Shown: positions 2,410 through 31,483, numbered from the stretch's first letter. The stretch: DNA of 64,000 nt from an uncultured virus (IMG/VR IMGVR_UViG_3300034110_001238) (IMGVR_UViG_3300034110_001238), one strand, 5' to 3'. Notes: generated by a model not told the origin, from the letters alone. A program made the numbers and translations.

Positions 2410-4761
2410 TTAACTTGGTGAGTTTCTATTTTTTCTTGGTTTTACTACAACTGAAAGATCAGGTCTTGATGTCAAGAACTTTTCTCGCAACGTAACCAAA
2501 TCCAATTCACGGTCTTCTTTTGACATCTTTTTAACACCGTCTAAAAACTCAATCGCATGGGTTTTGTCATCGTCTTTAATATTCAAAGAGCTAACCAAAG
2601 CATGTAGATCAGTTTTAACACCTTTGACAGCATCCACATTGATTTGGTTTACACAATCACTCATAGACTTCCAAAATTGATAGTAAGGAAGCTTAACCAT
2701 AAACATGCTAGATCCTTCAACTACAAAACCTTCCATGTGTCTTTTTGTTTTGAAAGCTGATTCATTAGTCAGTGCATTAAAAAACTTTTCAAAACCTTCA
2801 AAGTTATTAAAGCTTACAAATTTTTTCTTTGCATCAAAAGCTTCAAAATGCCCAGCAAAGGCTTCCAAGTTTTCATAAGTCAATTGTGTTAGAACAACAT
2901 CACGTTTCACTACCGCCAATAATACAATAGAACTCTTTTCTGGCTTAATGATATTTGATTCATTCTTAGCATCAATGACTTCAAAAATATAGTTAACATT
3001 GTGTTTATTTGCAAACACTTTCATAAATTCAAGTTCGCTTGATTTAAGATTGCTCAAAATCAATTGTTTGAAATCTTCTGCTTCAGCGGTATCAATACCA
3101 TATTTAGATGTAAACACCAATGAAGTGTTTTCAACATCATACCCAATCATGGCTAAGCGACCATCTTCTTGTTCAAATACATTCAAAGCCCCAGTTTCTT
3201 TTGCTTTGATAGCATCTAATGTATTATCAGCCACATCTTTTTCATTTAATTCATAAAATTTATCAAAACCTCGTGTGACGATATCCCCTGTTTTATTGTT
3301 CACGACAAGTCCACGAATCTTAACAGACGATTTCTGGATGTTTGATTCAACGACATCATGACTAAAATTAAATGTAGATAAATGTGGTTTTGAGATAGAT
3401 ACAGTTTCCACCAATAATTTATTGTCTCTCAAATCCTGAAGCAATTCCATACCACTCTTATGACCATCTACTTTACGGTTTAAAAAATGAGCAAGAGCAC
3501 CTTCTGGTTCAGCATTACCAAACATACCCGCTTCTTTTTCCATTTTAAGCACTTCTTCTTTGTTAAATACTTTATTGGTAATGTAGACTCCATTGAAGCC
3601 TTCGCGGCTTACTCTTAACACCGGCAAGCTACCACCGTATTCAACATCAGCTTCCAGTGCAAAGCTTTTAGGATAACTATTGAAATCTAGTTTGTGTTGA
3701 TTTCTATGACCATGAACCTGATACCATTCATTGTCTTTATTTTGTTCATTAAACTTACCATCAACGTCATAACTGTATGGGCCATAACCACGCATATATT
3801 CATCATCAGCCAAAAGACGTGGAAATTCAGGAACAGCCGTCAAACCAGCATGTGTGGTCATGATTTTTTTTCCATTGTATTGAATAAAGCTAAATAACTG
3901 CATTTTACGATACAATTCTTTCATATCTTCTTTTGTAAATCCTGCTTTTTCAAGTTGTGGCAATGTTTTATTCATAAATTCATCGGGTGGTGTGTAGATA
4001 TCATGACTGTAGTTATACATATGCTTCTCATGATTACCAGCAAGAATTAATACGTTAGGGTATTCAAGATATTTTCGAACAAAGTGAAGGCACTTATCGT
4101 TTTCAATGCCACGATCAAGATAATCACCGACAAAAATATAAAATTCATCTTTTTTGAAACCGCCTTCCTTTTCAAAATATTTTTTCAATGGATAAAATGA
4201 ACCTTGAAGATCACCGATGTAATGGATCTTCTTGTAACCACTTAAATCAATCATTAAGTCTTCTGGTGAAGCTTTAACAAACTTAATAGCAGCTTCTGGT
4301 GTAATAATTTTCGTCATGTCATTGAATGATGCATTCTGAAACAATTCGTAGTTTCTATCAATCGCATCTTTTGGCAATCTTTTGTAAGGTTCACGTTGAT
4401 CGTTACGAGCGTAATAAAATTCAATAGGTTGCAATGGGAATTGAACCACACGATAATCATAATCAAATTTTTGCAAAAGGTCCATATAAGAATCAATCGC
4501 TTTCTGGTCTTGGTTAAGATTGTCAATAAAGAGAACACCACCCATTTGAAGTCTCAATTCAAAGGCTTCCATAAATTTACCAAAAACCAAATCTTCTCGA
4601 TTGTTGGATAATACAAGGCGACCATCCATATCTGTTGCAGCTCCTGCATAAATATGACGAATAGCATCAAGAGATAAACTATGAGCATCTAATCCATGTT
4701 CTCTAATAAAAGTTGATTTACCAGTCCCCGGCATCGCTGATAAAAAGTAAACTGTTCTCAT
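2410..4761 (-). CDS. Pnkp-like protein: P-loop kinase + calcineurin-like phosphoesterase + Rnl1-like ligase domain
   Basis: AMPGTGKS; GDLQG, GDYLDRG, GNHE, HAG, HGH; RGFDKF, IFEVI, EGFVV, KLPYY. Confidence 0.85.
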   Translation of the reverse strand: MRTVYFLSAMPGTGKSTFIREHGLDAHSLSLDAIRHIYAGAATDMDGRLVLSNNREDLVFGKFMEAFELRLQMGGVLFIDNLNQDQKAIDSYMDLLQKFDYDYRVVQFPLQPIEFYYARNDQREPYKRLPKDAIDRNYELFQNASFNDMTKIITPEAAIKFVKASPEDLMIDLSGYKKIHYIGDLQGSFYPLKKYFEKEGGFKKDEFYIFVGDYLDRGIENDKCLHFVRKYLEYPNVLILAGNHEKHMYNYSHDIYTPPDEFMNKTLPQLEKAGFTKEDMKELYRKMQLFSFIQYNGKKIMTTHAGLTAVPEFPRLLADDEYMRGYGPYSYDVDGKFNEQNKDNEWYQVHGHRNQHKLDFNSYPKSFALEADVEYGGSLPVLRVSREGFNGVYITNKVFNKEEVLKMEKEAGMFGNAEPEGALAHFLNRKVDGHKSGMELLQDLRDNKLLVETVSISKPHLSTFNFSHDVVESNIQKSSVKIRGLVVNNKTGDIVTRGFDKFYELNEKDVADNTLDAIKAKETGALNVFEQEDGRLAMIGYDVENTSLVFTSKYGIDTAEAEDFKQLILSNLKSSELEFMKVFANKHNVNYIFEVIDAKNESNIIKPEKSSIVLLAVVKRDVVLTQLTYENLEAFAGHFEAFDAKKKFVSFNNFEGFEKFFNALTNESAFKTKRHMEGFVVEGSSMFMVKLPYYQFWKSMSDCVNQINVDAVKGVKTDLHALVSSLNIKDDDKTHAIEFLDGVKKMSKEDRELDLVTLREKFLTSRPDLSVVVKPRKNRNSPS

Positions 4762-4883: not shown

Positions 4884-5552
4884 ATGACTCAAGTCGCATT
4901 GAACAATTATGTAGCGGACCTGCATCGAATGGAAGAAGCATTTAAAGATACTTTTTCTAATGATAACATTGAGATGTTTGCTGCTAACATTTTAAACCAA
5001 AGAATGTTTATCTATAATATTGAAAGAAAATTGAGAGAAAGATCTCATAACTCAGCCAATCCAGATAATCATATGGCGACTTTATATAATTATCTAAATG
5101 ATTATATCGAAAACTCCCCTTCACCTTACAGAAATCTTGTCTTATTTGAAATCGATCAACTGGTTGATGATAAAAACTGTATAAGTTCAGAAGTTGAAAA
5201 ATATTTCATTCTTGAAAACTGTTCAATGACCGTGAATTTGTTTATGCATCTGTATTACAAAGAAACAGGCATTGAAATCAATCCATATGATTTAAAAGTA
5301 ACAGAAGTAGAAGAAATCTTAATGAATTTAGGTCTTAATCGAAAAATGGCTCTTAAATTTTGTGTTGCTGCCATTGCAGAATGCTTTGAAAAAGGTAACC
5401 AAAGCATTGTTAAGTCTATTGTAGGTGATAAGATGGATAAATTTTATAAATTCTATGATACCAGTGTAGCTAATCATAATACTTATGATGGTGAGGGATT
5501 TATGTTGTTGCTATTTCTAGCAACCTTTACATACATTTGTGAATCTTTTTAG
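4884..5552 (+). CDS. hypothetical protein
   Basis: ORF with AGGAG RBS before ATG 4884. Confidence 0.7.
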   Translation: MTQVALNNYVADLHRMEEAFKDTFSNDNIEMFAANILNQRMFIYNIERKLRERSHNSANPDNHMATLYNYLNDYIENSPSPYRNLVLFEIDQLVDDKNCISSEVEKYFILENCSMTVNLFMHLYYKETGIEINPYDLKVTEVEEILMNLGLNRKMALKFCVAAIAECFEKGNQSIVKSIVGDKMDKFYKFYDTSVANHNTYDGEGFMLLLFLATFTYICESF

Positions 5553-6159
5553 GACATTCCTGCTTAAACTCAGAAGCTATCTTGTTATGAAGTGGTTTAT
5601 ACTTCTCGTGAAGTTTAGACCAATCATTTTTCATGATGAGATAGTCTTTAATAACTTGATCGTATAATTCATTACAACTTTCTGGATTGATTTTATTCGT
5701 TTTGGCTATTTGTAGACCAAAATCTAGAATACGAAGAGAATGCCACAATGACTTGTAAGACACACTCAAATTAAAATCTTCTTCAACAATCAATTTTTTC
5801 TTAGCTTTGACGTAACTGTTTGAACTTTTTTGTGAGCAGCTTTCTCTTAGTTTTTCTTTGTCCAAAGTAAACCCTTCGATTTCACGACTGAGTGCTGGTG
5901 AGAGATATTTTTCTTTATGGGAAATATAGAGACATTCCAGAACTGAGATTTCATGTTCTTTTAAACGCTCTAAGAATTCTTCTTTGCTATAATTGCTGAT
6001 TTCATATTTAATATTATCTTGTTCAAACTGTTCTTGAAAGTAAGGTTTATTACTAACAATAATGAAATCAAAATCTTCTGGTGTTTTGTTTTTGTAGACA
6101 TTAGATCCATAAGGGAATACAGCAATGGCATTATATTTATCTTTCAATTCATTTATCAT
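5527..6159 (-). CDS. Pol-beta superfamily nucleotidyltransferase domain protein
   Basis: PYGSNVY...EDFDFIIV motif. Confidence 0.75.
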   Translation of the reverse strand: MINELKDKYNAIAVFPYGSNVYKNKTPEDFDFIIVSNKPYFQEQFEQDNIKYEISNYSKEEFLERLKEHEISVLECLYISHKEKYLSPALSREIEGFTLDKEKLRESCSQKSSNSYVKAKKKLIVEEDFNLSVSYKSLWHSLRILDFGLQIAKTNKINPESCNELYDQVIKDYLIMKNDWSKLHEKYKPLHNKIASEFKQECPKKIHKCM

Positions 6160-6201
6160 ACTGATCTCGTTTTCTTTTCAGTATAGCATAAAAATTGAAT
6201 A

Positions 6202-6512
6202 AAAAAAAAGAGAGCCTTTCGACTCTCTTATCATTCCTTTGGTTTTTACATCCATTAAAACAAATTTAACACTCCGTGTACATAAACTAGAACATATTCC
6301 ATCGAGCATTCTAATTCTTCTTCCTTTTCCTTGTAACAGTCCTTTATTGAGTGATTCCCTATCATCCTGATATAACCTTATATCCTTAAATCATCATCCT
6401 GATACGCTTACATCCTTGAGTCACTATTCCTTTTTTATTGTCGTCCATTACATCATCAGCCCACACTCAAAATCATTTTTCATGCAGTTATTTTTATTGT
6501 TTCCTTGCTGAC
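6202..6512 (-). ncRNA. CsrB/RsmZ-like CsrA(RsmA)-sequestering sRNA
   Basis: 15 GGA motifs in ~310 nt, some in hairpin loops (ATC-AGGAT-GAT x2, ACAC-GGA-GTGT); promoter TTGACA at 6546-6541; terminator GAGAGTC-GAAA-GGCTCTC + T-run. Confidence 0.85.
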
Positions 6513-7390: not shown

Positions 7391-7849
7391 ATGTCTAAAC
7401 TAATTGAAAACCCATACAACGTATTGATTACATTAAGTGCTAAAATAATATACGACTTAAAAATTAAAGAAGATAACTGGTTAAAGGTTATTGAATTTGT
7501 TAAAGGTCACGTCAATGCGAATGTGAAAAACGAAGGTTATGCACTAAAACTTATAAAAGAACAAATCAGTGAAGTGGACGCAAACTGTTTCAAGCTATTT
7601 GTAAACGAGTTCAACGCAACAATAGATGTCAAAAAATGTTATTTCAAACTCATTGATTGGATACTACAAATTAATTTGAAAAGACAAAGACTTTCTAAAT
7701 CCGTTAACAAGAAGACAGTAGCTAAACATATCATAAAAGAAGAGTTGTTTGAAGCCAATAAGCATTTTACAGATAAAAAATTGGTTGCCACTATTAATGT
7801 AGACAAAATTATTGATGTCAGTATCAACTCTTACATTAAAACAGCATGA
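7391..7849 (+). CDS. hypothetical protein
   Basis: ORF with AAGGTG RBS and downstream terminator. Confidence 0.7.
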   Translation: MSKLIENPYNVLITLSAKIIYDLKIKEDNWLKVIEFVKGHVNANVKNEGYALKLIKEQISEVDANCFKLFVNEFNATIDVKKCYFKLIDWILQINLKRQRLSKSVNKKTVAKHIIKEELFEANKHFTDKKLVATINVDKIIDVSINSYIKTA

Positions 7850-11330: not shown

Positions 11331-12095
11331 TTAAATCAACAAAATATCTAACAGTGTTTTCTCTTCTGGTGTCATTCGTTCCCAAAACAAATGAAAGTTC
11401 GCTAAGGTTATCTGTGTGCTATCAAACATATTTTCTTCTAGCAGTGATATCTTTTTACTGGTTGCTCTATTTAATATCTGAACCACATTTAATTGATTAC
11501 CTTCAAATTCAATATAGTCAGGATATGTTTGTTTAGATTCATCATTATAGTCATCATAACAAATATGAACAGTTTTTTTATCATTTTTAAAAAGAGACGC
11601 AATAATAAATTGATCAGGAGCATATTTAAAACCAACATCTACACGAATTAAGCTTGGTTTATCTAAAACTAGATTACCTGTTTGTCTAATTTCGAAGTGT
11701 TCAAAAAACGGAACATCAACGGTTTCTGGATACAGATTATATTGTTGTGCTGCATCACTGTAATAACTTTGAAAGGAGCTTTCATAATTTAAATCTGCTT
11801 TCTTAATATACTCCATATTACTTTCAGTATTTTTAATCCAATATTTTTCTTTAACATTTGTATCATAAACATTAATAATTAAAATCAATTCATCAAAAAT
11901 TTGAAAGTATAATTTTGTTAAATTTTTAAATTGTTGAAAACCTGATTTTATAAGCAAATCATAAAATAATTCTGAGCGATGACTTTCAAAACAGACAGTA
12001 GTCGCTGGTGTTCTTAAATAACGAAAAAGCGTTTCTTTTTCTGTCTCGATATCAACAAACAATAAGTGTATATCGGTATTTTCCAAATCCATCAT
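11331..12095 (-). CDS. hypothetical protein, tandem paralog family A
   Basis: Shares GFKY..D and ITLxNFHLFW with neighbours. Confidence 0.8.
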   Translation of the reverse strand: MMDLENTDIHLLFVDIETEKETLFRYLRTPATTVCFESHRSELFYDLLIKSGFQQFKNLTKLYFQIFDELILIINVYDTNVKEKYWIKNTESNMEYIKKADLNYESSFQSYYSDAAQQYNLYPETVDVPFFEHFEIRQTGNLVLDKPSLIRVDVGFKYAPDQFIIASLFKNDKKTVHICYDDYNDESKQTYPDYIEFEGNQLNVVQILNRATSKKISLLEENMFDSTQITLANFHLFWERMTPEEKTLLDILLI

Positions 12096-12136
12096 ATAAG
12101 AATCCTCATTTTAAATATTTTTAAATATGTAAGCGA

Positions 12137-12916
12137 CTACACCATTAACATTTCAATCAATGTTAGTTGTTCAGCAGTGTAACGTTCCCAGAAAAGGTGA
12201 TAATTATCAAGTGTAATATGAGCATCAAATTCATCACGAACATTCATCATCGACATCTTTTTCTGATTCTTTGGATTAAATATTATTAAATCGACCAGTT
12301 CATCATTAATAAACTGAATAAATTCGGCATACATATACTGACAGTTAGGTGTATAGGTATCATATTGAATTTGTATACGTTTATCCGCTCTATCAAAAAC
12401 AGAACCAAACATAAATTTATCTTGACCATATTTAAAACCTAAATCTAATCTAAGCAGTTTCGGTGTTTCATAAGCTGACCGAACTAGATAATTAACGTAA
12501 AAAGGCATATCTAAAGATTCTGGAAAGAGTTTATGATTAAAGACTTCACTATCGCTATGAAAATCTTTAAATGAACCATTATAAGCCTTTTTATTACTAA
12601 ATGATTCTACCGCTTTCAAGTTCGCTGTAGAGTTGTAAAGATAATATTTTTCTCTCATTACAAAATTATCGACACTGGCTTCTAAGTAAACAACGAAAAT
12701 ATACGCTCCTAAAACTTGAAAGTAATGTGGAGTGTCAGCCGTCTTAATTTTTGAAAAACCAGCGTTGCTAAAAACATTGTCTAGCATTTCATAATTGTAG
12801 TTAATAAAAGCAACACACACATCTGTTTCATACACATGGTTAGAAAATTCGTTCGCATCAAAGGTATTAATATTTACAGTGATAAGCTTCATCTCATTGT
12901 TTTTTAAATCAATCAT
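12137..12916 (-). CDS. hypothetical protein, tandem paralog family A
   Basis: GFKYGQD, ITLDNYHLFW. Confidence 0.8.
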   Translation of the reverse strand: MIDLKNNEMKLITVNINTFDANEFSNHVYETDVCVAFINYNYEMLDNVFSNAGFSKIKTADTPHYFQVLGAYIFVVYLEASVDNFVMREKYYLYNSTANLKAVESFSNKKAYNGSFKDFHSDSEVFNHKLFPESLDMPFYVNYLVRSAYETPKLLRLDLGFKYGQDKFMFGSVFDRADKRIQIQYDTYTPNCQYMYAEFIQFINDELVDLIIFNPKNQKKMSMMNVRDEFDAHITLDNYHLFWERYTAEQLTLIEMLMV

Positions 12917-12926
12917 TATTCAATCC

Positions 12927-13685
12927 TTATATTGCAGACATTTCAACAAGAAGTTTTTGTTCTGGTGTAAAATCATTCCAAAATAAATGAAAGTTATCCA
13001 AAGTAATAGCAGTGACATCTATAATATCAGAATCCTGTGTGATATCTAAATTTATTTTTTTTGTTTTGTTGATTAATCTAGCAACATTCATGCGGCCAGC
13101 AACAAATTCAATAAAATCAGAACATAAATGATCAAATTTATCAACATAATTTGTATAACTTATGTGGACATAACTGCCTTTCCGATGAAAAATTCTAACT
13201 GACATCATTTTATCTTTTTCGTATTTAAATGAAAGTACAATTTTATTAATTTTAATTTGTTCATCAATGATATGAGTAACATCAAACATTTCATTAAATG
13301 GAGTTTCCAAGGTTGTATCATAAAATTGATAAATACTCTCATTGATACAATCTAAAGATTCCAAGGGATCATAGGATTCCTTAAAATTATTTTCAATATA
13401 ATTAAGATTTCCGTCAGTTAATTGAACCCAGAATTTATCCCTAATATAGAAATCTTCTACATGAACTAGAAGTATCTTTCCATTAGTAACCTTATAGTGG
13501 ATAGTTCGTAATGTTGAACTGATGTCTTTAAACCCATGAAAAAGCAAAATATCTTTAATAATAGATTCATCTTCATAAAAATATACGGTCGTACCAATGG
13601 TTGTCAACGCCGTCATGAAAATATCGTTAGGTAGACTTTTAGTAACGAATAAAACATTAGGTTCTATGTTTTTAATATCCAGCAT
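12927..13685 (-). CDS. hypothetical protein, tandem paralog family A
   Basis: SFKYEKD, ITLDNFHLFW. Confidence 0.8.
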   Translation of the reverse strand: MLDIKNIEPNVLFVTKSLPNDIFMTALTTIGTTVYFYEDESIIKDILLFHGFKDISSTLRTIHYKVTNGKILLVHVEDFYIRDKFWVQLTDGNLNYIENNFKESYDPLESLDCINESIYQFYDTTLETPFNEMFDVTHIIDEQIKINKIVLSFKYEKDKMMSVRIFHRKGSYVHISYTNYVDKFDHLCSDFIEFVAGRMNVARLINKTKKINLDITQDSDIIDVTAITLDNFHLFWNDFTPEQKLLVEMSAI

Positions 13686-13760
13686 GATAAGACCTCATTA
13701 GAATGCCAGTATTATAGCACATTCCATGTAGAGATATCAATAAAAAATAACCCTATACGT

Positions 13761-14531
13761 TTATTCAATCAGCATTTCAATAACTGTTAAAGTTTCTTTA
13801 TTAATTTTTTGGAAAAATAAATGATAGTTATCAATGTTGACATGACTGGTATCAATTAATGAATTTAGGTTGGTTGATTTAACAGATCCTTTCTTGTTTT
13901 CCACTGCATAGGATATTAATGTTCCATATTCAGAGAATGTTAAGTCTGTTACAATTAGGTTATTGTTGTCTTCATTTGAAATATATTGAACATCAAACAT
14001 GCCGTCCATCCAAACTTGTTCAATACGGTATTTTAAATCTTGATATTTAAATACACTATACGTCACACCCATATCCAGATGCTCAGGAAAATCAAAAACT
14101 TCTTTATAGGCTTTTGTGTTACTTGTTATATAAAATGCATTTCCAAGCAATGTTTCTTCGGAGTCACCAACCGTTGATAAAAGTTGAAGAGCGTTCTCAC
14201 GATTTAAGCTCTTAATGATATTAAGATTTCGTTCATTGTTTAAGATGTATGATTTTGATGATATATAAGATTTATTTGTGTTATTTAAACGTGCTATGTC
14301 AATTAATAGGATGTAATTGTCAAAAGATTTAAAAAGATATTCACTGGATTCTAAATTGACAATAGAGATAAAGCCAGCTTGTTCTAAAAGAGATGACTTT
14401 ATTACATTGTCATCAAATACTGCAGTTTTCCCAACTTTGAAAATGATATGCTCTAATTCATCAATGGTGAGAGGTGCAGCGTATCGTATTCGATTTTTCA
14501 ATTTTTGCTCCTTAAAAAAAATGAAGGTCAT
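13761..14531 (-). CDS. hypothetical protein, divergent family A member
   Basis: FKYQD, VNIDNYHLFF; GGAGG RBS before 14531. Confidence 0.75.
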   Translation of the reverse strand: MTFIFFKEQKLKNRIRYAAPLTIDELEHIIFKVGKTAVFDDNVIKSSLLEQAGFISIVNLESSEYLFKSFDNYILLIDIARLNNTNKSYISSKSYILNNERNLNIIKSLNRENALQLLSTVGDSEETLLGNAFYITSNTKAYKEVFDFPEHLDMGVTYSVFKYQDLKYRIEQVWMDGMFDVQYISNEDNNNLIVTDLTFSEYGTLISYAVENKKGSVKSTNLNSLIDTSHVNIDNYHLFFQKINKETLTVIEMLIE

Positions 14532-14554
14532 TTGACCTCCATTCTTATGTTGTT

Positions 14555-15556
14555 TTAAATAACTTCGTGATATTTGAGTTCTTTCTTTAAGTAACAATAA
14601 AGAATAGGAGCGGCAATAAGCCCAGTGACACCAAATATAGATTCCATTATCAACATTGCAACTAAGAGTTCAAATGCTTTAGCTTCTATTCTACTACCGA
14701 TAATTTTAGCATTCAAGAAGTATTCGAATTTATGTATGAAAATTAAATAAGCAAAGGCACTGACACCTACATACGGTGAAACGGATAAACCAACAAGCAA
14801 TACAATCGCATTCACAATCAAGTTACCCGCAATAGGGATTAAACCGATAACAAATGTCAAGATGATGATAGTTTTTGCGAATGGGAAATCAACACCAAAG
14901 AGCGGCATAGCAATAAGCAAGAACAATGCAGTCATTACAGCATTAAAGAGTGCAATACCTGCTTGTGCAACCATTACATGTTTGAAAGACTCAATTAAAT
15001 GTGAATAACGTGTTTTTAGTGAATCAAGAAACATCTTATCAGTTTTAACATAATCACTAGCAGCAATCATAATACCAATAATCATACCCAAGATCATAGT
15101 AATCAACGTATGAGTTGCACCACGACTAAATTCTCTTAGTACAAATAGATTTTCTTTCATGAAATCAACAATACTGACTTTTAGTTTATGAATATCTTGT
15201 GGGAAGAATCCTGATATTTTTGGCGGTAAATCTTTTATTGTCTTATCAAGCACTGTTGTGATTTCATTAACAATCATGTCTGGATTACTAACAGTCTTAT
15301 AGAGCCAAGAGAATGAATACATCGAGATAAGTGTTAAAAAACCTATAATAATAAGAGATATGACGACAGTAGAAACAAACTTAGACATATTTCCAAGCTT
15401 CATATACTTATTCATCATGTCTTCTGAAAATCTCATCATAAGAAATGTAACCATACCTGCGAGTAATGCGGGTAGTAAAGATATCTTCATAATCGTTATA
15501 AACCCTATTACCATCAGGCATATAACACCAACGTCTACTTTTTGTCTTAATTGCAT
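14555..15556 (-). CDS. AI-2E (PerM-like) family transporter
   Basis: Multi-TM; GLIPIAGNL, HKFEYFLNAKIIG, FGVTGLIAAP. Confidence 0.85.
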   Translation of the reverse strand: MQLRQKVDVGVICLMVIGFITIMKISLLPALLAGMVTFLMMRFSEDMMNKYMKLGNMSKFVSTVVISLIIIGFLTLISMYSFSWLYKTVSNPDMIVNEITTVLDKTIKDLPPKISGFFPQDIHKLKVSIVDFMKENLFVLREFSRGATHTLITMILGMIIGIMIAASDYVKTDKMFLDSLKTRYSHLIESFKHVMVAQAGIALFNAVMTALFLLIAMPLFGVDFPFAKTIIILTFVIGLIPIAGNLIVNAIVLLVGLSVSPYVGVSAFAYLIFIHKFEYFLNAKIIGSRIEAKAFELLVAMLIMESIFGVTGLIAAPILYCYLKKELKYHEVI

Positions 15557-15716: not shown

Positions 15717-16520
15717 ATGCCAGAATTACCAGAAGTCCAATGCGTAGTGAACTCACTCGCTAGCATAGCAAACAAAAAAATCAAAAATGTTGAAGTCTAC
15801 GATAATAGACTGCGTGAACCTGTTCAACCCAATCTAGATAAATTATTAGATGGTCGAACTATTAAGAATGTCGAACGTCGAGCTAAATGCATTATTTTCA
15901 ATCTGGACAAAGGTTCTATTGTCGCTCACTTAGGTATGACAGGAAAATTTCTTATCCAACCAGAAAAGATTGATGATAAATTTAATCGAGTAGCGATACA
16001 GTTTGAAGACGGTTCATATCTCGTCTACAATGACATTCGTAAATTTGGCTTCATTACCTATGAAAATACACCAACCGATAACAAATTTGTAAAGCATCTG
16101 GGTATAGAGCCTTTAACTGACGCTTTCACAGGGGATTATCTTTATTCCTTATCAAGAAACAACAGAAAGAATATCAAGCAGTTTTTACTGGATCAAAAGT
16201 ATGTGGTAGGGCTTGGTAACATCTATGTGATTGAGTTAATGTATATCTGTGGCATAAGTCCGTATTCAAAAGCAATGGATTTAACGCTAAAACAATCAGA
16301 GATGTTGGTAAAGGAAACTAAAGACATTTTAAACAAGTCTATTATAGCAGGTGGTTCCTCTATTTCCGATTACCGTGACGCTTTTGACCAAGAAGGGAGT
16401 TTTCAAGATAATTTTCATGTGTATGGTAAGAAAGAAGATTCATTAGGTCATGCAGTGACCAGAATTAAACAAGGTGGTCGTGGCACCTATTACTGCCCTA
16501 TATGTCAAAACTGTCCATAA
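15717..16520 (+). CDS. mutM: formamidopyrimidine-DNA glycosylase
   Basis: N-terminal PELPEV, HLGMTG, GLGNIY, terminal CPICQ (first Cys pair of the zinc finger absent). Confidence 0.95.
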   Translation: MPELPEVQCVVNSLASIANKKIKNVEVYDNRLREPVQPNLDKLLDGRTIKNVERRAKCIIFNLDKGSIVAHLGMTGKFLIQPEKIDDKFNRVAIQFEDGSYLVYNDIRKFGFITYENTPTDNKFVKHLGIEPLTDAFTGDYLYSLSRNNRKNIKQFLLDQKYVVGLGNIYVIELMYICGISPYSKAMDLTLKQSEMLVKETKDILNKSIIAGGSSISDYRDAFDQEGSFQDNFHVYGKKEDSLGHAVTRIKQGGRGTYYCPICQNCP

Positions 16521-16584
16521 GTATCAAATTGTTATTAAGCAGACTAAAAAGCCTACTATTAATGTAGGTTTTTTGTTGTCTCAT

Positions 16585-17298
16585 TTATTTCTTTTTTGTT
16601 TTCTTTACTTTGGCATCAAGTAAGGATTGAAATTCATTTTTAAACAATGATGTGTAAACAGCAAGATCCAAAGGTTCATTGATATTGATACGCAATTCTT
16701 GTCTATTCTTGGTCTTAACAAAAGGAACAGATAACACAACGGTCGGTGTTAAGACTTCATCGACAATTAAGAGTTCTAGATTAGCCGTCAATTTTAAAGG
16801 ACGTGTTTCCAAACCAGTGGTCAAATCAATAAAAGAAACCTTAGCGACACGTTTGTTATAATCAGGATAAATAGAATGATAGTAGGCTCCAAAGGATTGA
16901 TAAACCTCTTGGTGTTGATAAAACCACGATAACGATATTTTTGCTGGATAACTGATATCCTTAATAAGTCCAACAGATAATCCAGTCAGAGCATAGCTAT
17001 TAATAATATCAACCACATGATTAAAATGAATTTTACCTAACCATTTATTAATATTGTTAACATTAGTAACGCCTTCAAAATTTAAATTTAACAAATACTG
17101 ACTAGTTTGTATGCCAGTGGGTATCATGATGGCATTTAACAGAGTTTCATCACTACTGGTTGATTTGATAAGGTATTGCTCCACTGATTGAGATGGATAA
17201 GTATTGGCTTCTATACGAACAACATCATTAGCTTTTGAATAAGGTGAGTGTTTTAGAATTTTTTCGTAGAGCTTAAGTATATCTGTCTCTTTGGTCAT
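16585..17298 (-). CDS. hypothetical protein
   Basis: ORF with GGAG RBS. Confidence 0.7.
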   Translation of the reverse strand: MTKETDILKLYEKILKHSPYSKANDVVRIEANTYPSQSVEQYLIKSTSSDETLLNAIMIPTGIQTSQYLLNLNFEGVTNVNNINKWLGKIHFNHVVDIINSYALTGLSVGLIKDISYPAKISLSWFYQHQEVYQSFGAYYHSIYPDYNKRVAKVSFIDLTTGLETRPLKLTANLELLIVDEVLTPTVVLSVPFVKTKNRQELRININEPLDLAVYTSLFKNEFQSLLDAKVKKTKKK

Positions 17299-17372
17299 GC
17301 ACCATCTCCATTATATTAACATTTCTATTATCTTATGATGATTGAAATCAAAGTCAACGAGCACGAAATCAT

Positions 17373-17401
17373 TTGACTTTGAAACGAACCTTTGATAAAA
17401 T
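17373..17401 (+). promoter_or_regulatory. promoter P1 of Leu leader
   Basis: TTGACT-17bp-TAAAAT with extended TG. Confidence 0.7.
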
Positions 17402-17425
17402 ATAAGAATTAACGAGGACGAAATT

Positions 17426-17488
17426 ATGTTCACAACTATTCGATTATCACTGCTACTCTTAAGCTCACTATTACTTAGCTTGGGCTAG
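17426..17488 (+). CDS. Leu-rich leader peptide MFTTIRLSLLLLSSLLLSLG
   Basis: GAGGA RBS; 9 Leu codons of 20, covering TTA, TTG, CTT, CTC, CTA and CTG. Confidence 0.8.
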   Translation: MFTTIRLSLLLLSSLLLSLG

Positions 17489-17498
17489 CATCTATTTG

Positions 17499-17594
17499 TC
17501 TGCATTTTGGACAATTAGATTGTCCAGATGCAGATGACCTCGAATATAAAAACTCGCCTCATTTCGCATCTGGACCCCAAAAGGGTCTTTTTTT
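17499..17594 (+). promoter_or_regulatory. attenuator-like alternative hairpins and intrinsic terminator
   Basis: Hairpin 17499-17534; alternative pairing TCCAGATGC(17523-31)/GCATCTGGA(17566-74) overlapping terminator GACCC-CAAAA-GGGTC-T7. Confidence 0.75.
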
Positions 17595-17684
17595 ATGGGC
17601 GAATGTCTAGGGTTAACTACAACTATAAATAACGTAAATCATTGATTTAAAAGGAAAATATTTTAAAATATTTTAAAATAATTG

Positions 17685-17713
17685 TTGACAAAGAAGAAAA
17701 GAGTTGGTAAGAT
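17685..17713 (+). promoter_or_regulatory. promoter P2 of tRNA array
   Basis: TTGACA-17bp-TAAGAT with AT-rich upstream region. Confidence 0.75.
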
Positions 17714-17765
17714 AGTAAACATGAAGAGTGAGGAAACAAACAAACACTCTTAAAGAAATAAATAT

Positions 17766-17850
17766 GCGGATGTGGCGAAACTGGTAAACGCGACTGTCTC
17801 AAACACAGTTTCTATAATGATTGTGAGTTCAAGTCTCACCTTCCGCACCA
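17766..17850 (+). tRNA. tRNA-Leu(CAA), slightly divergent
   Basis: Cloverleaf, ACTGT-CTCAAAC-ACAGT, one T-T mismatch in acceptor, ACCA end. Confidence 0.85.
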
Positions 17851-17949
17851 AATAAAGATTTAAAATTGGGTTGCTCCGGTTCCCACTGGAAACTTTGAAA
17901 CATAGTAATTATTAGCTTGTAACTCACTATTATCAAAGTCAAACCCCTG

Positions 17950-18033
17950 ATGAGTATGATGTAATGGTAGCCATAATGTCTTCGCTTAGACATGCCCCAT
18001 AAAGGCGTAAGGGTTCGAGTCCCTTTACTCATT
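17950..18033 (+). ncRNA. tRNA-like RNA with aberrant 8-nt anticodon loop, no encoded CCA
   Basis: ATGAGTA/TACTCAT acceptor, D arm, ATGTC-TTCGCTTA-GACAT, long variable arm, AAGGG-TTCGAGT-CCCTT. Confidence 0.65.
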
Positions 18034-18040
18034 AAGATAT

Positions 18041-18124
18041 GCGATTGTGGTGGAATGGTATACACGTTGGTCTAAGAAGCCAATGCCGCAAGGATTGAGA
18101 GTTCAAGTCTCTCCAATCGCACCA
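18041..18124 (+). tRNA. tRNA-Leu(AAG)
   Basis: TTGGT-CTAAGAA-GCCAA; full cloverleaf; ACCA. Confidence 0.9.
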
Positions 18125-18156
18125 GATTTATAGTAAGATATGTAGCTACAACATAA

Positions 18157-18240
18157 GCCCCGATGGCGGAATGGTAGACGCGGCGGATTCAAAATCCGTT
18201 TCCGAAAGGAGTGGGAGTTCGAGTCTCCCTCGGGGCACCA
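18157..18240 (+). tRNA. tRNA-Leu(CAA)
   Basis: GCGGA-TTCAAAA-TCCGT; ACCA. Confidence 0.95.
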
Positions 18241-18262
18241 AATTGATGTAAAGAAATATCAC

Positions 18263-18346
18263 GCGGAAGTGATGAAATGGTAGACGTGCTGGCCTTAGAA
18301 GCCAGTGTCGAGAGACGTGTGGGTTCGAGTCCCACCTTCCGCACCA
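18263..18346 (+). tRNA. tRNA-Leu(TAG)
   Basis: CTGGC-CTTAGAA-GCCAG; ACCA. Confidence 0.95.
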
Positions 18347-18350
18347 GATT

Positions 18351-18500
18351 GCTTAAATGATGGAATGGTAGACATAGGGTGATAGCCCTGTCATTACAGG
18401 TTCGAATCCTGTTATTAGTATCTTACTAATATGGCGGAACGGTAGACGCGATGGACATTGAGTCCATGACTTGTAGGTTCGACTCCTACTTTAAGCGACA
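18351..18500 (+). ncRNA. double (domain-swapped) tRNA-like RNA with two D arms and two T arms
   Basis: GCTTAAA(18351-57) pairs with TTTAAGC(18490-96); internal TATTAGTA-TCT-TACTAATA hairpin lies between T arm 1 and D arm 2. Confidence 0.75.
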
Positions 18501-18506
18501 AATTAT

Positions 18507-18590
18507 GCGTTAGTGGTGGAATGGTATACACGCTGGTCTAAGAAGCCAGTGCCGAAAGGATTGTGAGTTCGAGTCTCACCTAACGCACCA
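18507..18590 (+). tRNA. tRNA-Leu(AAG)
   Basis: CTGGT-CTAAGAA-GCCAG; ACCA. Confidence 0.9.
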
Positions 18591-18601
18591 AATTTAGATA
18601 T

Positions 18602-18687
18602 GCCCGAATGGTGAAATTGGTAGTACACAGGAGACTTAAAATCTCCCGCTGAAAGGCGTGTCGGTTCGAGTCCGACTTCGGGTACCA
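18602..18687 (+). tRNA. tRNA-Leu(TAA)
   Basis: GGAGA-CTTAAAA-TCTCC; ACCA. Confidence 0.95.
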
Positions 18688-18701
18688 AATTATGAGTTAC
18701 T

Positions 18702-18786
18702 GCGGAAGTGATGAAATGGTAGCACATGCTGGTTTCAGAAACCAGTGCCGCGAGGCGTGTGGGTTCGAGTCCCATCTTCCGTACCA
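18702..18786 (+). tRNA. tRNA-Leu(CAG)
   Basis: CTGGT-TTCAGAA-ACCAG; ACCA. Confidence 0.95.
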
Positions 18787-18797
18787 GATTTAGATAT

Positions 18798-18883
18798 GCC
18801 CGAATGGTGAAATTGGTAGTACACAGGAGATTCAAAATCTCCCGCTGAAAAGCGTGTCGGTTCGAGTCCGACTTCGGGTACCA
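18798..18883 (+). tRNA. tRNA-Leu(CAA)
   Basis: GGAGA-TTCAAAA-TCTCC; ACCA. Confidence 0.95.
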
Positions 18884-18901
18884 GATTGTACATGTGTTTA
18901 T

Positions 18902-18986
18902 CCCCGGATGGTGGAATTGGTAGACACAGGAGACTTAAAATCTCCCGCCGAAAGGCGTGCCGGTTCGAGTCCGGCTCCGGGGACCA
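18902..18986 (+). tRNA. tRNA-Leu(TAA)
   Basis: GGAGA-CTTAAAA-TCTCC; ACCA. Confidence 0.95.
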
Positions 18987-18990
18987 GATT

Positions 18991-19088
18991 TAATTCAATA
19001 TCGAAGGTTCGAATCCTTTTCTCGTGTTTGCACGGGGTGGTGGAGTGGTAGACACGTTTGCTGAAATGCATTCTAAAATATTGAATTA
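18991..19088 (+). ncRNA. circularly permuted tRNA-like RNA (T arm - closed acceptor - D arm; YrlA-like topology)
   Basis: GAAGG-TTCGAAT-CCTTT, TCTCGTG-TTTG-CACGGGG, TG, GTG-GAGTGGTAGA-CAC, closed by TAATTCAATAT/ATATTGAATTA. Confidence 0.75.
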
Positions 19089-19097
19089 CTTTTTTAT

Positions 19098-19181
19098 GCC
19101 CGAATGGCGAAATGGTAGACGCGGGGGACTTAAAATCCCCTTCCTTCGGGAGTGACGGTTCGAGTCCGTCTTCGGGCACCA
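19098..19181 (+). tRNA. tRNA-Leu(TAA)
   Basis: GGGGA-CTTAAAA-TCCCC; ACCA. Confidence 0.95.
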
Positions 19182-19216
19182 ACTTTATGTTTTATTTCTT
19201 ACAAAGGTATTTAAAC

Positions 19217-19561
19217 ATGACAAACTCAGCCAAAGGTAAAATTGTTATCGTTAATTTGTATGACAATCGTTATTGGAATATCTTCCTTGATGGCGAACTG
19301 GTTGCAGAGCCACATAAAGAAGATTTTACTGATTATGTCTTTAAACGTTCTATTCGAAAAGAATGGGCCGATATTGCTGGTGTTGATGAAACTGATTTGA
19401 GTTACAGTTTAATTGATTTATATGAACATGAAGATAGTATTCCTGATTATGATGCCAATGATTTTGAAGACTATCAAGATTTGATAACCTGTTGCAAAAA
19501 TAATAATATAGATTTTATCTTTGAAAATGTTGATTTAAACTATATTGAAAAGAAGTATTAA
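19217..19561 (+). CDS. small acidic hypothetical protein inside the tRNA array
   Basis: AAGGT RBS before ATG 19217; the longer ORF call overlaps a tRNA. Confidence 0.7.
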   Translation: MTNSAKGKIVIVNLYDNRYWNIFLDGELVAEPHKEDFTDYVFKRSIRKEWADIAGVDETDLSYSLIDLYEHEDSIPDYDANDFEDYQDLITCCKNNNIDFIFENVDLNYIEKKY

Positions 19562-19568
19562 TGTCTAT

Positions 19569-19652
19569 GCGGAAATGGTGGAATGGTAGACACGCTGGTC
19601 TTAGAAGCCAGTGCCGAAAGGCGTGTGGGTTCGAGTCCCACTTTCCGCACCA
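19569..19652 (+). tRNA. tRNA-Leu(TAG)
   Basis: CTGGT-CTTAGAA-GCCAG; ACCA. Confidence 0.95.
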
Positions 19653-19666
19653 ATTAAATCATAATT

Positions 19667-19695
19667 AAAACTGTATATTGTATACAGTTTTTTTT
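19667..19695 (+). terminator. intrinsic terminator ending the tRNA array
   Basis: AAAACTGTATA-TTG-TATACAGTTTTTTTT. Confidence 0.75.
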
Positions 19696-19785
19696 GCTTT
19701 TTAAATGATTAAAAGAAATGATTGTATAATTATCCCTTTTGTATTATAATAATATAGTTAACCAATATAATATAATGAGGATTAA

Positions 19786-20409
19786 ATGACTAGTAAGAAT
19801 GAAATTGTAATTAAAGCGTATATGGCTGGCCCTGATGTCTTTCACCCTGACGCAAAAATAAACGCTGAAGTGACCAGACTATTATGTGAAAAGCACGGTA
19901 TTGTTGCTTTAATTCCATTGGATAATGAAGTGTCTACTGATAACACTCCAAGTCAGATATCCCAAGAAATATACGATAAGAATACTAACTTGATGGATTC
20001 TGCTGACTTGTTTATTGTCAATATGTCACCATTCCGTGGCCCATCAACTGATGTGGGGACTGCATTTGAAATGGGATATGCGGCGGCACAAAAAAAGAAA
20101 GTGTTTGCATTCACATCCGATCTTCGCCCTTACAAAGAACGTGTTGAAGACTACATGAAGAAAGCAGGAAATGATGGTCAAGCTGTTGAAGATTTTGGTA
20201 ATGTGGATAACACTATGCTGGATAAAAGTGTTGTGGAAATTCAAAGTGAGCTTTCAGCAGTCTTGGAATCACCTAAATTTAAAAGTTTCATTTTTATGTT
20301 AAGAAAACAAAAAGAGGAAATCGCTGAGAAATCCGCACTTGACCCAGAACACAATCAGGTTAAAATTCCACGACCAGCAAAAATAGGATCACTCAGATCT
20401 CAACCTTAA
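19786..20409 (+). CDS. nucleoside 2-deoxyribosyltransferase family protein
   Basis: YMAGPDVF, PFRGPSTDVGTAFEMGYA, VEDFG..DNTM. Confidence 0.9.
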   Translation: MTSKNEIVIKAYMAGPDVFHPDAKINAEVTRLLCEKHGIVALIPLDNEVSTDNTPSQISQEIYDKNTNLMDSADLFIVNMSPFRGPSTDVGTAFEMGYAAAQKKKVFAFTSDLRPYKERVEDYMKKAGNDGQAVEDFGNVDNTMLDKSVVEIQSELSAVLESPKFKSFIFMLRKQKEEIAEKSALDPEHNQVKIPRPAKIGSLRSQP

Positions 20410-20422
20410 AATAAAAGCCAGT

Positions 20423-21616
20423 TTACACTGGCTTTATTGTTTTCTTCTGTTTCAATGTGTTACCCCAATCTTTTAATTCAAGTGTCTTAAAATTATCCTT
20501 ACTTGATTTATAGTCATCAATCGTCTCATAGAATCTGACCACTTGATATCCATACTCTTTCAATTTATCGAATAACAGTTTCTTCTGAAAATCAGGAGTT
20601 CTTGATTCAGCTTTCGATATACCATATTTTTCAAAATAAGCATCTTTCAATAACATGAAAGGGTTGATTTTTTCTTTGAATTCACTTTTGTCAGCATGTG
20701 TTAAAATATTTCTTGAATACAAGTTGTCAGCCAACTTCATAAAATATTGCTTTCCATATTCATTGTCATTTGTTTCGTATTCATCTAAGCTGTTCACATT
20801 GAACGCAGAGTTGTTATAAAGCAATCCAATGTTTAAAGTTTTGACACCACTTAAACTATCTTTAATGCCAAATCTTTTTGTGAGGTAGTCATTAGGTTGT
20901 TCAATATTGAGTTCATTCTTAAAATTAATGGTTAAGCATTCAATTAATGCGTAAGTTTCCACTCGCATATTATCATTTCTGGTTCTTAATGTTTCTAATG
21001 TTTGTGAATAGGTTTCTGTTTCAATTTCGAATTGAGCAGAAATATCATCATCAAATTCATTTTGTAAAATCAATAACTCGTTTTCCAATGCTAATAATTC
21101 ATTGGCTGCAGTTGTTTTCTGAGACAATCTATAATTCTTAACGTCATCATCATTCACATCAATATCAAGCATAGATTCGGCAACATCAAGTTCTCTTGAT
21201 TTCGATTCAATCTTATCATTAAGATCATTGTATTTATTATGAGCTTCTTCCCAACGATTTATAATCTGATTGATATAACGCTCTTGTGAATCTACATCAA
21301 TGTTGAAATGATACATTTCTTTGATATTATCAATCATCATATTTATTTCTAAATCTGATTTAAGAGCTTTTACTTCATCAGGAAGGTTTTCATAGCTAGC
21401 AATCACATCAGAAACCCATTTCTTTAAGTTATCAACAGCTTCGAAGAGATCATATGAATATACGGTTAAATCACTTGGATTTTGATAAAGAGCGACTTCG
21501 AATACTCGTGTACACGTTTTACCTTGAAAGATAAGTGGATTAATAAAAGGGCATGTAATAGGATGTGTTTCATGGTAACCAAGTAAAGTGTCAGTGAGTA
21601 TTTGTTTCATCGTCAT
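20423..21616 (-). CDS. coiled-coil hypothetical protein
   Basis: 397-aa ORF. Confidence 0.75.
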   Translation of the reverse strand: MTMKQILTDTLLGYHETHPITCPFINPLIFQGKTCTRVFEVALYQNPSDLTVYSYDLFEAVDNLKKWVSDVIASYENLPDEVKALKSDLEINMMIDNIKEMYHFNIDVDSQERYINQIINRWEEAHNKYNDLNDKIESKSRELDVAESMLDIDVNDDDVKNYRLSQKTTAANELLALENELLILQNEFDDDISAQFEIETETYSQTLETLRTRNDNMRVETYALIECLTINFKNELNIEQPNDYLTKRFGIKDSLSGVKTLNIGLLYNNSAFNVNSLDEYETNDNEYGKQYFMKLADNLYSRNILTHADKSEFKEKINPFMLLKDAYFEKYGISKAESRTPDFQKKLLFDKLKEYGYQVVRFYETIDDYKSSKDNFKTLELKDWGNTLKQKKTIKPV

Positions 21617-24210: not shown

Positions 24211-24233
24211 AAAAAACGCCCATATTGGGCGTT
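24211..24233 (-). terminator. attenuator terminator upstream of proS
   Basis: AACGCCC-AATAT-GGGCGTT-TTTT on the minus strand, ~60 nt before the proS start. Confidence 0.8.
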
Positions 24234-24260
24234 AAGGTCAATTTAAAAGTAAATAGAGTC

Positions 24261-24323
24261 TTAGACGCCCAACATGAGCGGTAGAGGTCGAATAGTTTTG
24301 AATAATGCAATATTACTTTTCAT
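24261..24323 (-). CDS. proS leader peptide MKSNIALFKTIRPLPLMLGV
   Basis: AGGA RBS; CCT and CCG codons just 5' of an 11-nt segment complementary to the terminator 5' arm. Confidence 0.75.
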   Translation of the reverse strand: MKSNIALFKTIRPLPLMLGV

Positions 24324-24348
24324 TTTGTATTTTCCTATGTATTTTTAA

Positions 24349-24377
24349 ATTATACGTTATTTATTGGAATTTAGCAA
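24349..24377 (-). promoter_or_regulatory. promoter of proS leader
   Basis: TTGCTA-17bp-TATAAT. Confidence 0.7.

Positions 24378-30532: not shown

Positions 30533-31483
<951 letters not shown>

Follow-up and report, generated by a model that had tools for sequence, protein, structure and literature searches.

A candidate leader-peptide transcription attenuator in front of a tRNA-Leu operon in an AT-rich metagenomic element

The stretch of DNA analyzed here (the window) comprises the 64,000 nucleotides (nt) of IMGVR_UViG_3300034110_001238, catalogued in IMG/VR as an uncultured virus. On its plus strand lies an array of tRNA-Leu genes, preceded by a leader that we define as the DNA between two promoters, P1 and P2, 5' of the array; coordinates are those of the window unless a related locus is named. 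P1 (17373..17401, plus strand) consists of the hexamers TTGACT and TAAAAT at a spacing of 17 nt together with a TG motif, and matches the consensus at 10 of 12 positions. A Shine-Dalgarno (SD) sequence, GAGGA (17414..17418, plus strand), stands 7 nt 5' of the ATG at 17426, which opens an open reading frame (ORF) of 20 codons (17426..17488, plus strand) that reads MFTTIRLSLLLLSSLLLSLG and ends at UAG. Nine of its codons specify leucine (TTA three times, CTA twice, and CTG, CTC, CTT and TTG once each), an enrichment of 9/19 codons against a background of 0.088 (P = 1.3e-5). The intrinsic terminator that follows, termed E:F (17572..17594, plus strand), is formed by GGACCC and GGGUCU in a stem at 17572-17588 and then seven T residues; the energy of its hairpin is ordinary (z -0.71; 42 of 200 shuffled sequences equally good). 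Beyond the terminator lie an A/T-rich upstream tract and P2 (17640..17713, plus strand), which reads TTGACA-17-TAAGAT with a TG motif, its hexamers occupying 17685-17713. An earlier reading of the sequence alone (the original prediction) had proposed a promoter, a ribosome-binding site, a 20-codon ORF with nine Leu codons, a U-tailed terminator and a second promoter after it. All of these were found, the terminator with its end at ~17594, although the coordinates proposed for them were off by one base and the ORF starts one base to the left of the implied frame.

ARAGORN identified 11 tRNA-Leu genes downstream, with the anticodons CAA (three genes), AAG (two), TAG (two), TAA (three) and CAG (one), and the tRNA genes of the array carry encoded CCA ends. 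Ten of them lie at 17766..19181 on the plus strand, in the order CAA, AAG, CAA, TAG, AAG, TAA, CAG, CAA, TAA and TAA, with tRNA-like sequences between them. The eleventh, with anticodon TAG, lies at 19569..19652 on the same strand and is followed by the terminator hairpin of the operon, which has a T run (19667..19699, plus strand; -10.3 kcal/mol, z -4.09). Inside the operon, at 19217..19561 on the plus strand, is an ORF of 114 codons that has no match in Pfam, PHROG or NCBIfam; its model reaches a pLDDT of 86.7, yet no fold in the PDB matches it at E <= 0.001. The array had been described as leucine-only, which is not strictly so, since the 114-codon ORF, tRNA fragments and degenerate tRNA-like sequences also lie inside it. 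The degenerate sequences are found at 17949-18034 (with an 8-nt anticodon loop), at 18351-18420 (28.4 bits, under the Rfam cut-off) and at 18424-18499 (called Gln-TTG, and also found in the distant relative L043), and half-tRNA fragments at 18987-19097. The genes downstream of the leader are thus the 11 tRNA-Leu genes and the 114-codon ORF, with neither a biosynthesis enzyme nor a synthetase among them.

The 114-codon ORF served as the anchor for finding relatives of the locus. A profile of its 12 homologues led to 10 metagenome loci at 52-97% identity, and in 10/10 of these relatives the ORF is embedded in a tRNA operon. An additional relative, the 181-kb viral-collection contig G001, aligns with the window in pieces of ~82-98% identity and shows zero substitutions in 17373-17629. 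Leu-only arrays occur in four distinct versions, represented by the window and L034, by L035 and L036, by L037, and by L043. P1, GAGGA and the ATG are conserved in all four of these Leu-type sequences, and the -35 box TTGACT of P1 recurs in the leaders of L035, L037, L043, L040, L041 and L030. The Leu-only relatives retain the leader peptide through synonymous Leu swaps (CTG/CTC, CTA/TTA, CTC/CTA), with a few other changes. The original prediction had emphasized that the nine Leu codons include all six synonyms; they are indeed present in the window, but the joint occurrence has a P of only ~0.044 under the codon usage of the window, and the set is not conserved, CTT being absent in L035 and CTG in L037 and L043. 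Overall, a leader is present at seven of nine distinct array heads of the various types. As a separate observation, L035 and L036 contain a Leu-type tRNA with the anticodon TTA, called "tRNA-Stop" (L035:4551-4729), which may be an ochre suppressor.

Several overlapping RNA pairings can be drawn between the leader ORF and the terminator. A hairpin inside the coding region, A:B' (17451..17490, plus strand), appears in the minimum free energy (MFE) structure of the whole leader and is predicted only without ribosomes. The hairpin B:C (17490..17520, plus strand; AUCUA-U-UUGUCU with GGACAA-U-UAGAU), whose 5' arm begins 2 nt past the stop codon, belongs to the MFE structure of 17490-17600 alongside the antiterminator. 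C:D (17496..17537, plus strand), the main hairpin of the original prediction, would act as an anti-antiterminator; its energy of -22.1 kcal/mol gives a z of -5.9, with 0/200 shuffled sequences equally good. The antiterminator itself, D:E (17522..17575, plus strand), has the core GUCCAGAUGC/GCAUCUGGAC (17522-17531 with 17566-17575) and in its extended form an energy of -23.2 kcal/mol (z -6.15; 0/200 shuffles equally good). Across the four Leu-type sequences, 41 of 42 cells are paired in B:C, 85.1% in C:D (14 of 19 pairs invariant), 40 of 40 in D:E, where two pairs survive via G-U changes, and 24 of 24 in E:F, where L037 has one compensatory C-G to U-A change. As had been proposed, D:E invades the terminator stem at 17572-17588, and C:D and D:E, both with z about -6, are mutually exclusive. 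Covariance models of the Rfam leader families, including Leu_leader, and of the T-box gave no match at E <= 1 in 16500-20500 or in L030, L040, L041 and L043.

A comparison of the window with L043 indicates which parts of the leader are under constraint. DNA identity is 231/359 in the neighbouring ORF and 68/76 across the SD sequence and leader ORF; within the pairing region it is 41/49 from B to D, 31/35 from E to the U tract, and 10/24 in the spacer between D and E. Since the ORF and the pairing segments are conserved and the spacer is not, selection acts on the ORF and on the pairing segments.

The other tRNA clusters of the element and its relatives carry leaders whose codons differ with the content of the array. 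A second array in G001 contains Ala-TGC, Ala-GGC, Arg-TCT, Arg-CCT and CAT tRNAs. Its leader (L030) has a TTGACT/TATAAT promoter and a 13-codon ORF that reads MNIQLTIRARAIS before the stop codon and has the core codons ATA AGA GCC AGA GCG ATA, followed by a 12-bp terminator and a P2 block that is almost identical to that of the Leu array. Mixed arrays (L038, L040, L041 and L042) contain Arg-TCT, CAT, Leu-TAA, Leu-CAA and Arg-CCT genes, and their leaders, of 29-32 codons, are rich in AGA, ATA, TTA and TTG, in runs such as ATA ATA ATA AGA TTA TTA or TTA AGA TTA AGC AGA. The CAT tRNAs were identified as tRNA-Ile2, the reader of AUA, from matches 97.4% and 83.3% identical to E. coli tRNA-Ile genes. 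In all seven leaders tested, the codon set of the leader's own array was the most enriched of three sets: 8-9 of 18-19 codons in the Leu leaders (P 1e-5 to 7e-5), 13/31 in L040 (P 7e-7), 11/28 in L041 (P 1e-5) and 6/12 in L030 (P 1.6e-4). The GCC and GCG codons of the Ala/Arg leader are rare in the genome (0.56% and 0.47%), and the non-Leu leader peptides are not hydrophobic. The check that had been suggested, whether other tRNA clusters also have cognate leaders, therefore came out positive for the Ala/Arg array of G001 and for the mixed arrays L038, L040, L041 and L042. As a side observation, the CAT tRNA at L039:4333-4408 and those of the other mixed arrays are 96-97% identical to E. coli tRNA-Ile2. 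The tRNA-Leu(CAG) of the element has no E. coli match, which means that the 97% match seen for tRNA-Ile2 gives no general indication of the host; the tRNA-Ile2 gene may have been captured recently from a proteobacterial host.

Leaders of the same build also precede synthetase genes. The window and G001 were scanned for small ORFs that have an SD sequence and an ATG and are followed by a terminator not trailing a long ORF; besides the tRNA leaders, three further cases came up, in front of ProRS, AspRS and IleRS. Approached from the promoters, 46 strong promoter-like sites were present in these two sequences, and a small ORF and terminator follow only four of them, namely those of the two Leu leaders, the Ala/Arg leader and the AspRS leader. 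The predicted ProRS leader attenuator (24211..24377, minus strand) has a TTGCTA/TATAAT promoter, an ORF (24323-24261, minus strand) that reads MKSNIALFKTIRPLPLMLGV before its stop codon and contains PLPL and the codons CCT and CCG, and a terminator with a T run (24233-24215); the 3' end of the ORF pairs with the terminator region, and the MFE is -40.2 kcal/mol (z -5.72). The ProRS gene itself (24150-23020, minus strand; 376 aa) was assigned by NCBIfam in two stretches, the better of which covers model positions 2-219 of 559, so that part of a bacterial ProRS may be missing. In G001, the AspRS leader (L044:6633-6799, minus strand) encodes MTIRFIADNNDNFAQLSVGLSVA with the motif DNNDN and lies upstream of a non-discriminating AspRS, and the IleRS leader (L049:16332-16505, minus strand) encodes MKTLNTFVNSIIIIPKLPMS with the motif IIII and lies upstream of IleRS; both ORFs end in a stop codon, and both leaders have a promoter and a terminator. 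In the folding analysis, the terminator arm of the synthetase leaders is predicted to stay sequestered until the ribosome clears the Pro, Asp/Asn or Ile codons. The tripeptide TIR (ACT ATT CGA/CGT or ACT ATA AGA) precedes the control codons in four of six leader classes, and the Leu and Pro leaders have ACTATTCGA and a TTGGGC ending in common. The leaders therefore look like paralogues of a single family whose control codons can be exchanged.

To model the direction of control, transcripts were cut at the terminator loop, the footprint of a ribosome was forced to be single-stranded, and the probability of the antiterminator helix was calculated. With one ribosome on the window leader, this probability is 0.26-0.99 at most Leu codons and 0.00 at TTG/GGC/TAG. 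For L037 and L043 it is ~0.98 and drops to 0.00-0.26 with the ribosome at TAG. In the mixed leaders, for which the stalled values were modelled with trailing ribosomes, it rises from 0.00 in the ribosome-free state to 0.97-0.99 with the ribosome stalled at codons 11-24 (L040) or to 0.95-0.97 (L041), and returns to 0.00 at the stop codon. The Ala/Arg leader L030 behaves similarly, with 0.01 when ribosome-free, 0.93-0.98 only across ACT ATA AGA GCC AGA GCG (ATA), and 0.02 at the stop codon. In this model of truncated transcripts a direction can thus be assigned, in which stalling at Leu codons would lead to read-through and a ribosome at the stop codon to termination. The prediction that stalling gives read-through follows from B:C, the hairpin that bridges the stop codon and the main hairpin.

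The anatomy of the leader, its conservation and the match between leader codons and array content thus recur across the relatives. Collectively, the sequence and the modelling suggest, with a probability that we put at about 0.77, that the leader is a ribosome-mediated leader-peptide transcription attenuator regulating the tRNA-Leu operon. From these features we infer that the ORF is translated, that its ribosome is coupled to RNA polymerase and in which direction control runs, as well as how large the effect would be relative to P2. Transcripts from P1 would contain the translated 20-codon ORF and the overlapping B:C, C:D, D:E and E:F pairings. When Leu codons are decoded quickly, the ribosome would reach UAG and cover B, C:D would pair and E would be left free, so that E:F would halt transcription at ~17594. 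A ribosome held at the Leu codons would instead allow B:C to form; D:E would then pair, E:F would be blocked, and RNA polymerase would continue into the 11 tRNA-Leu genes. Slow decoding of leucine would probably make the element produce more tRNA-Leu, so that the supply of tRNA would be tied to decoding capacity by negative feedback in a closed loop. As P2 looks strong and lies behind the terminator, the attenuator would only add P1-derived transcripts to a basal, unattenuated supply. The original prediction, in which the leader senses how Leu codons are decoded and controls tRNA-Leu output with no Leu biosynthesis gene or leuS downstream, is supported by the cognate leaders at other arrays and by the absence of leuA and leuS downstream in all 10 relatives examined.

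Going further, we think it somewhat more probable than not that this is a giant AT-rich bacterial mobile element or virus with a paralogous family of codon-addressed leaders, in which the control codons match the downstream gene or genes and tRNAs in short supply are topped up. Such leaders would read the decoding capacity of the host codon by codon, responding to the rare AUA, AGA and UUA codons and possibly to tRNAs lost to nucleases. Choice at the level of codons (ATA/AGA/TTA/TTG in the mixed leaders, GCC/GCG in the Ala/Arg leader) favours low tRNA, rather than uncharged tRNA, as the signal.

Several observations weigh against this interpretation. P2 is near-consensus, lies 3' of the terminator and is present in all arrays, and the L039 lineage, which is a natural leaderless control, has two array heads (L039:4100-4333 and 7650-7821) at which a P2-like promoter stands alone, both leader and attenuator being absent. 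Attenuation can therefore be dispensed with and would concern P1 transcripts only. The Leu leader peptide is hydrophobic and resembles a membrane segment, so that it could be a small membrane peptide. These points, together with the A/T-rich tract and the conservation of P2 between arrays, would fit P1, the small ORF and the terminator forming a self-contained unit, either a gene for a hydrophobic peptide or a structured small RNA, with P2 alone driving the array. We regard this as unlikely, because it leaves unexplained why leader codons vary with array content over three array types, why the same architecture stands before ProRS, AspRS and IleRS with cognate codons, and why a conserved antiterminator is paired to the terminator; moreover, the other leader peptides are not hydrophobic. 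The comparative evidence for attenuation of the tRNA-Leu operon also has limits. Covariation is thin, with four distinct sequences and one compensatory pair, and shuffle controls of it are uninformative because there are only four sequences. The leaders within one type are homologous, so that the independent observations amount to about six leader classes and not thirteen loci. The folding model, for its part, is an equilibrium model and sensitive to its assumptions. L035 switches only weakly, a ribosome at its stop codon leaving the antiterminator at 0.46-0.93; equilibrium folding that includes the whole terminator gives little or no switch, the value for the window being 0.73 throughout, with no effect of Leu stalling; and ribosome-free L035, L037 and L043 have a predicted read-through of 0.98, unlike superattenuation of the trp type. 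Sequestration of the terminator arm beat at least 99 of 100 dinucleotide shuffles in three of seven leaders, the number of shuffles at least as good being 0 for the window and for L041, 1 for L043, 6 for L037, 11 for L040, 25 for L035 and 41 for L030.

The modelling also bears on the sign of the response. When all upstream RNA is masked, a ribosome at the stop codon fails to free the terminator in the window, L035 and L043, and leaves the window antiterminator at 0.96-0.98; in addition, the main hairpin begins past the stop codon, where a stalled ribosome would not mask it directly. Both would be expected if fast Leu decoding gave read-through and stalling gave termination, with tRNA output tracking demand. 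Such a reversed response seems quite improbable, given that the conserved B:C connects the stop codon with C:D, that under single-ribosome masks the antiterminator drops to 0.00 at the TTG/GGC/TAG codons of the window and, for L037 and L043, reaches 0.00-0.26 at TAG, and that the mixed, Ala/Arg and synthetase leaders are all classical in sign. It is slightly less probable again that the mechanism is the one we favour and its signal is amino-acid starvation, sensed as uncharged tRNA and carried over from an ancestral attenuator of the amino-acid or synthetase kind, with the tRNA genes coupled to it as a non-adaptive by-product. To a stalled ribosome, low tRNA and uncharged tRNA are indistinguishable, and the TIR motif and TTGGGC ending held in common with the ProRS leader suggest descent from a synthetase attenuator. 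The control codons of the other arrays (ATA, AGA, TTA and TTG) are nevertheless selected one by one to suit the supplied anticodons (tRNA-Ile2, Arg-TCT, Leu-TAA and Leu-CAA) and do not take in every codon of an amino acid, the Ala/Arg leader employs the rare GCC and GCG, and extra tRNA would not ease amino-acid starvation. That the ORF arose by chance in an AT-rich spacer beside an ordinary terminator would agree with the P of ~0.044 for the six synonyms and with the unexceptional terminator energy. It is very improbable in view of conservation far above that of the neighbouring gene, the synonymous swaps, alternative helices with z about -6 and six cognate leader classes.

Attenuation of the tRNA-Leu operon would have parallels in several known systems. 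In enterobacteria, the leuABCD operon is controlled by leuL, a leader-peptide attenuator (Rfam Leu_leader). The leader described here resembles it in having a promoter, a short ORF with clustered Leu codons, alternative hairpins, a U-tailed terminator and, as predicted, read-through upon stalling. It differs in that the nine Leu codons are spread over five or six synonyms instead of forming a short run, in that the putative targets are tRNA-Leu genes, in its second promoter past the terminator and in the lack of an Rfam leader match. Like hisL, the attenuator of the his operon, it has more than three overlapping hairpins (A:B', B:C, C:D, D:E and E:F), along which the position of the ribosome would be relayed as a chain of alternative pairings; the amino acid and the target are different, however, and ribosome-free read-through is predicted here in three of the four Leu-type sequences. 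The ilvL leader of ilvGMEDA responds to several amino acids (Ile, Leu and Val), as the mixed and Ala/Arg/Ile leaders would, although here the mix is set by the codons and anticodons of the downstream tRNA array and not by a shared pathway. In pheM-pheST of E. coli, leader-peptide attenuation controls a synthetase operon, whose product belongs to the translation apparatus. The ProRS, AspRS and IleRS leaders of the element fit this type, whereas with the tRNA-array leaders the logic would reach beyond charging enzymes and include tRNA genes as well. T-box riboswitches bind uncharged tRNA directly, without translation, and target protein genes. The present leaders would likewise use transcription attenuation to report on a specific tRNA, but their conserved element is a putatively translated ORF and no T-box match was found. 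Finally, the two promoters in series and the A/T-rich tract upstream of P2 recall the tandem P1/P2 promoters of stable-RNA operons (rrn), with the difference that here an ORF and a terminator sit between the promoters.

The novelty of the system is that tRNA genes would be the regulated product. To our knowledge, the known targets of leader-peptide attenuation are protein genes, and a search of full-text literature, with older subscription papers outside its scope, found no account of tRNA genes under such control; if the interpretation is true, we expect on balance that this would be the first case. The E. coli genes pheU/pheV might have leaders resembling attenuators, but the literature search did not confirm this. 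The output molecule would then set the speed of its own sensor, making a minimal closed loop for tRNA homeostasis. Such a loop would explain how large phages or mobile elements whose codon usage is skewed adjust the amount of their own tRNAs where the tRNA pool of the host is different or under attack, and it would provide a portable sensor for the decoding rate of chosen codons. The modular build of the leaders, with a common start, swappable control codons and a copy of the terminator at the end of the ORF, would allow evolution to re-address these sensors.

The nature of the element that carries the array was considered from its gene content. The window has ~31% G+C, and most of its ORFs lack a family match. 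An SD-like motif stands upstream of 43/64 window ORFs, as against 2/64 control windows, and this together with the encoded CCA ends points to expression of the bacterial style. Tandem same-strand tRNA genes in AT-rich, ORFan-rich DNA with bacterial expression signals fit the tRNA arrays of phages and mobile elements. The relatives L034, L035, L040, L042 and L043 lie on contigs of 0.29-1.86 Mb, and the element may be viral, plasmid-like or cellular. A PHROG scan of 23 window ORFs and 93 ORFs of G001 found no capsid, terminase or tail families, and its single strong match was GAPDH; no ribosomal genes were seen. GAPDH (40168-41178) is one of several cellular-type genes in the window, along with AsnB (35514-37370), thioredoxin reductase (30548-31483) and Fpg (15717-16520), and the element carries several synthetase genes.

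Searches for further relatives gave little. A phage DNA search returned tRNA-level matches only and no cultured relative, the two flanking ORFs had no tblastn match in phages, and the 114-codon ORF had none in plasmids. Among species genomes, the protein profile was without matches, and a 19-nt leader pattern gave three chance matches, all without tRNAs. Among viral contigs, an 18-mer from P2 matched G001 and, by chance, one coding region; a looser 17-base pattern had more than 117 unrelated AT-rich matches, with no similar tRNA array in the 80 loci retrieved, and the mixed-leader pattern had no match. A literature search for megabase phages gave nothing of relevance.

Elsewhere in the window, a gene at 2410-4761 (minus strand) encodes a 783-aa protein with the look of a tRNA-repair enzyme, in which a kinase-like P-loop domain, a metallophosphatase and an RNA ligase of the Rnl1 type are fused; it is followed by a nucleotidyltransferase gene (5527-6159, minus strand). 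G001 encodes RtcB (L044:8791-10227). The original prediction had offered tRNA-cleaving host defences as an example of a motive for the circuit. This is not supported, the RNA-ligase fusion gene and RtcB being context only. In the 5' region of the nucleotidyltransferase gene (~6160-6370, minus strand), a terminator-like hairpin with a T run was observed (6209); as a candidate leader of the peptide type it was rejected, because the small ORF that precedes it is not conserved in G001. Finally, ORFs of 250-285 aa that have no family match and look like tandem paralogues were observed both in the window (11331-14597, minus strand) and in G001 (L049:3613-9381, minus strand).

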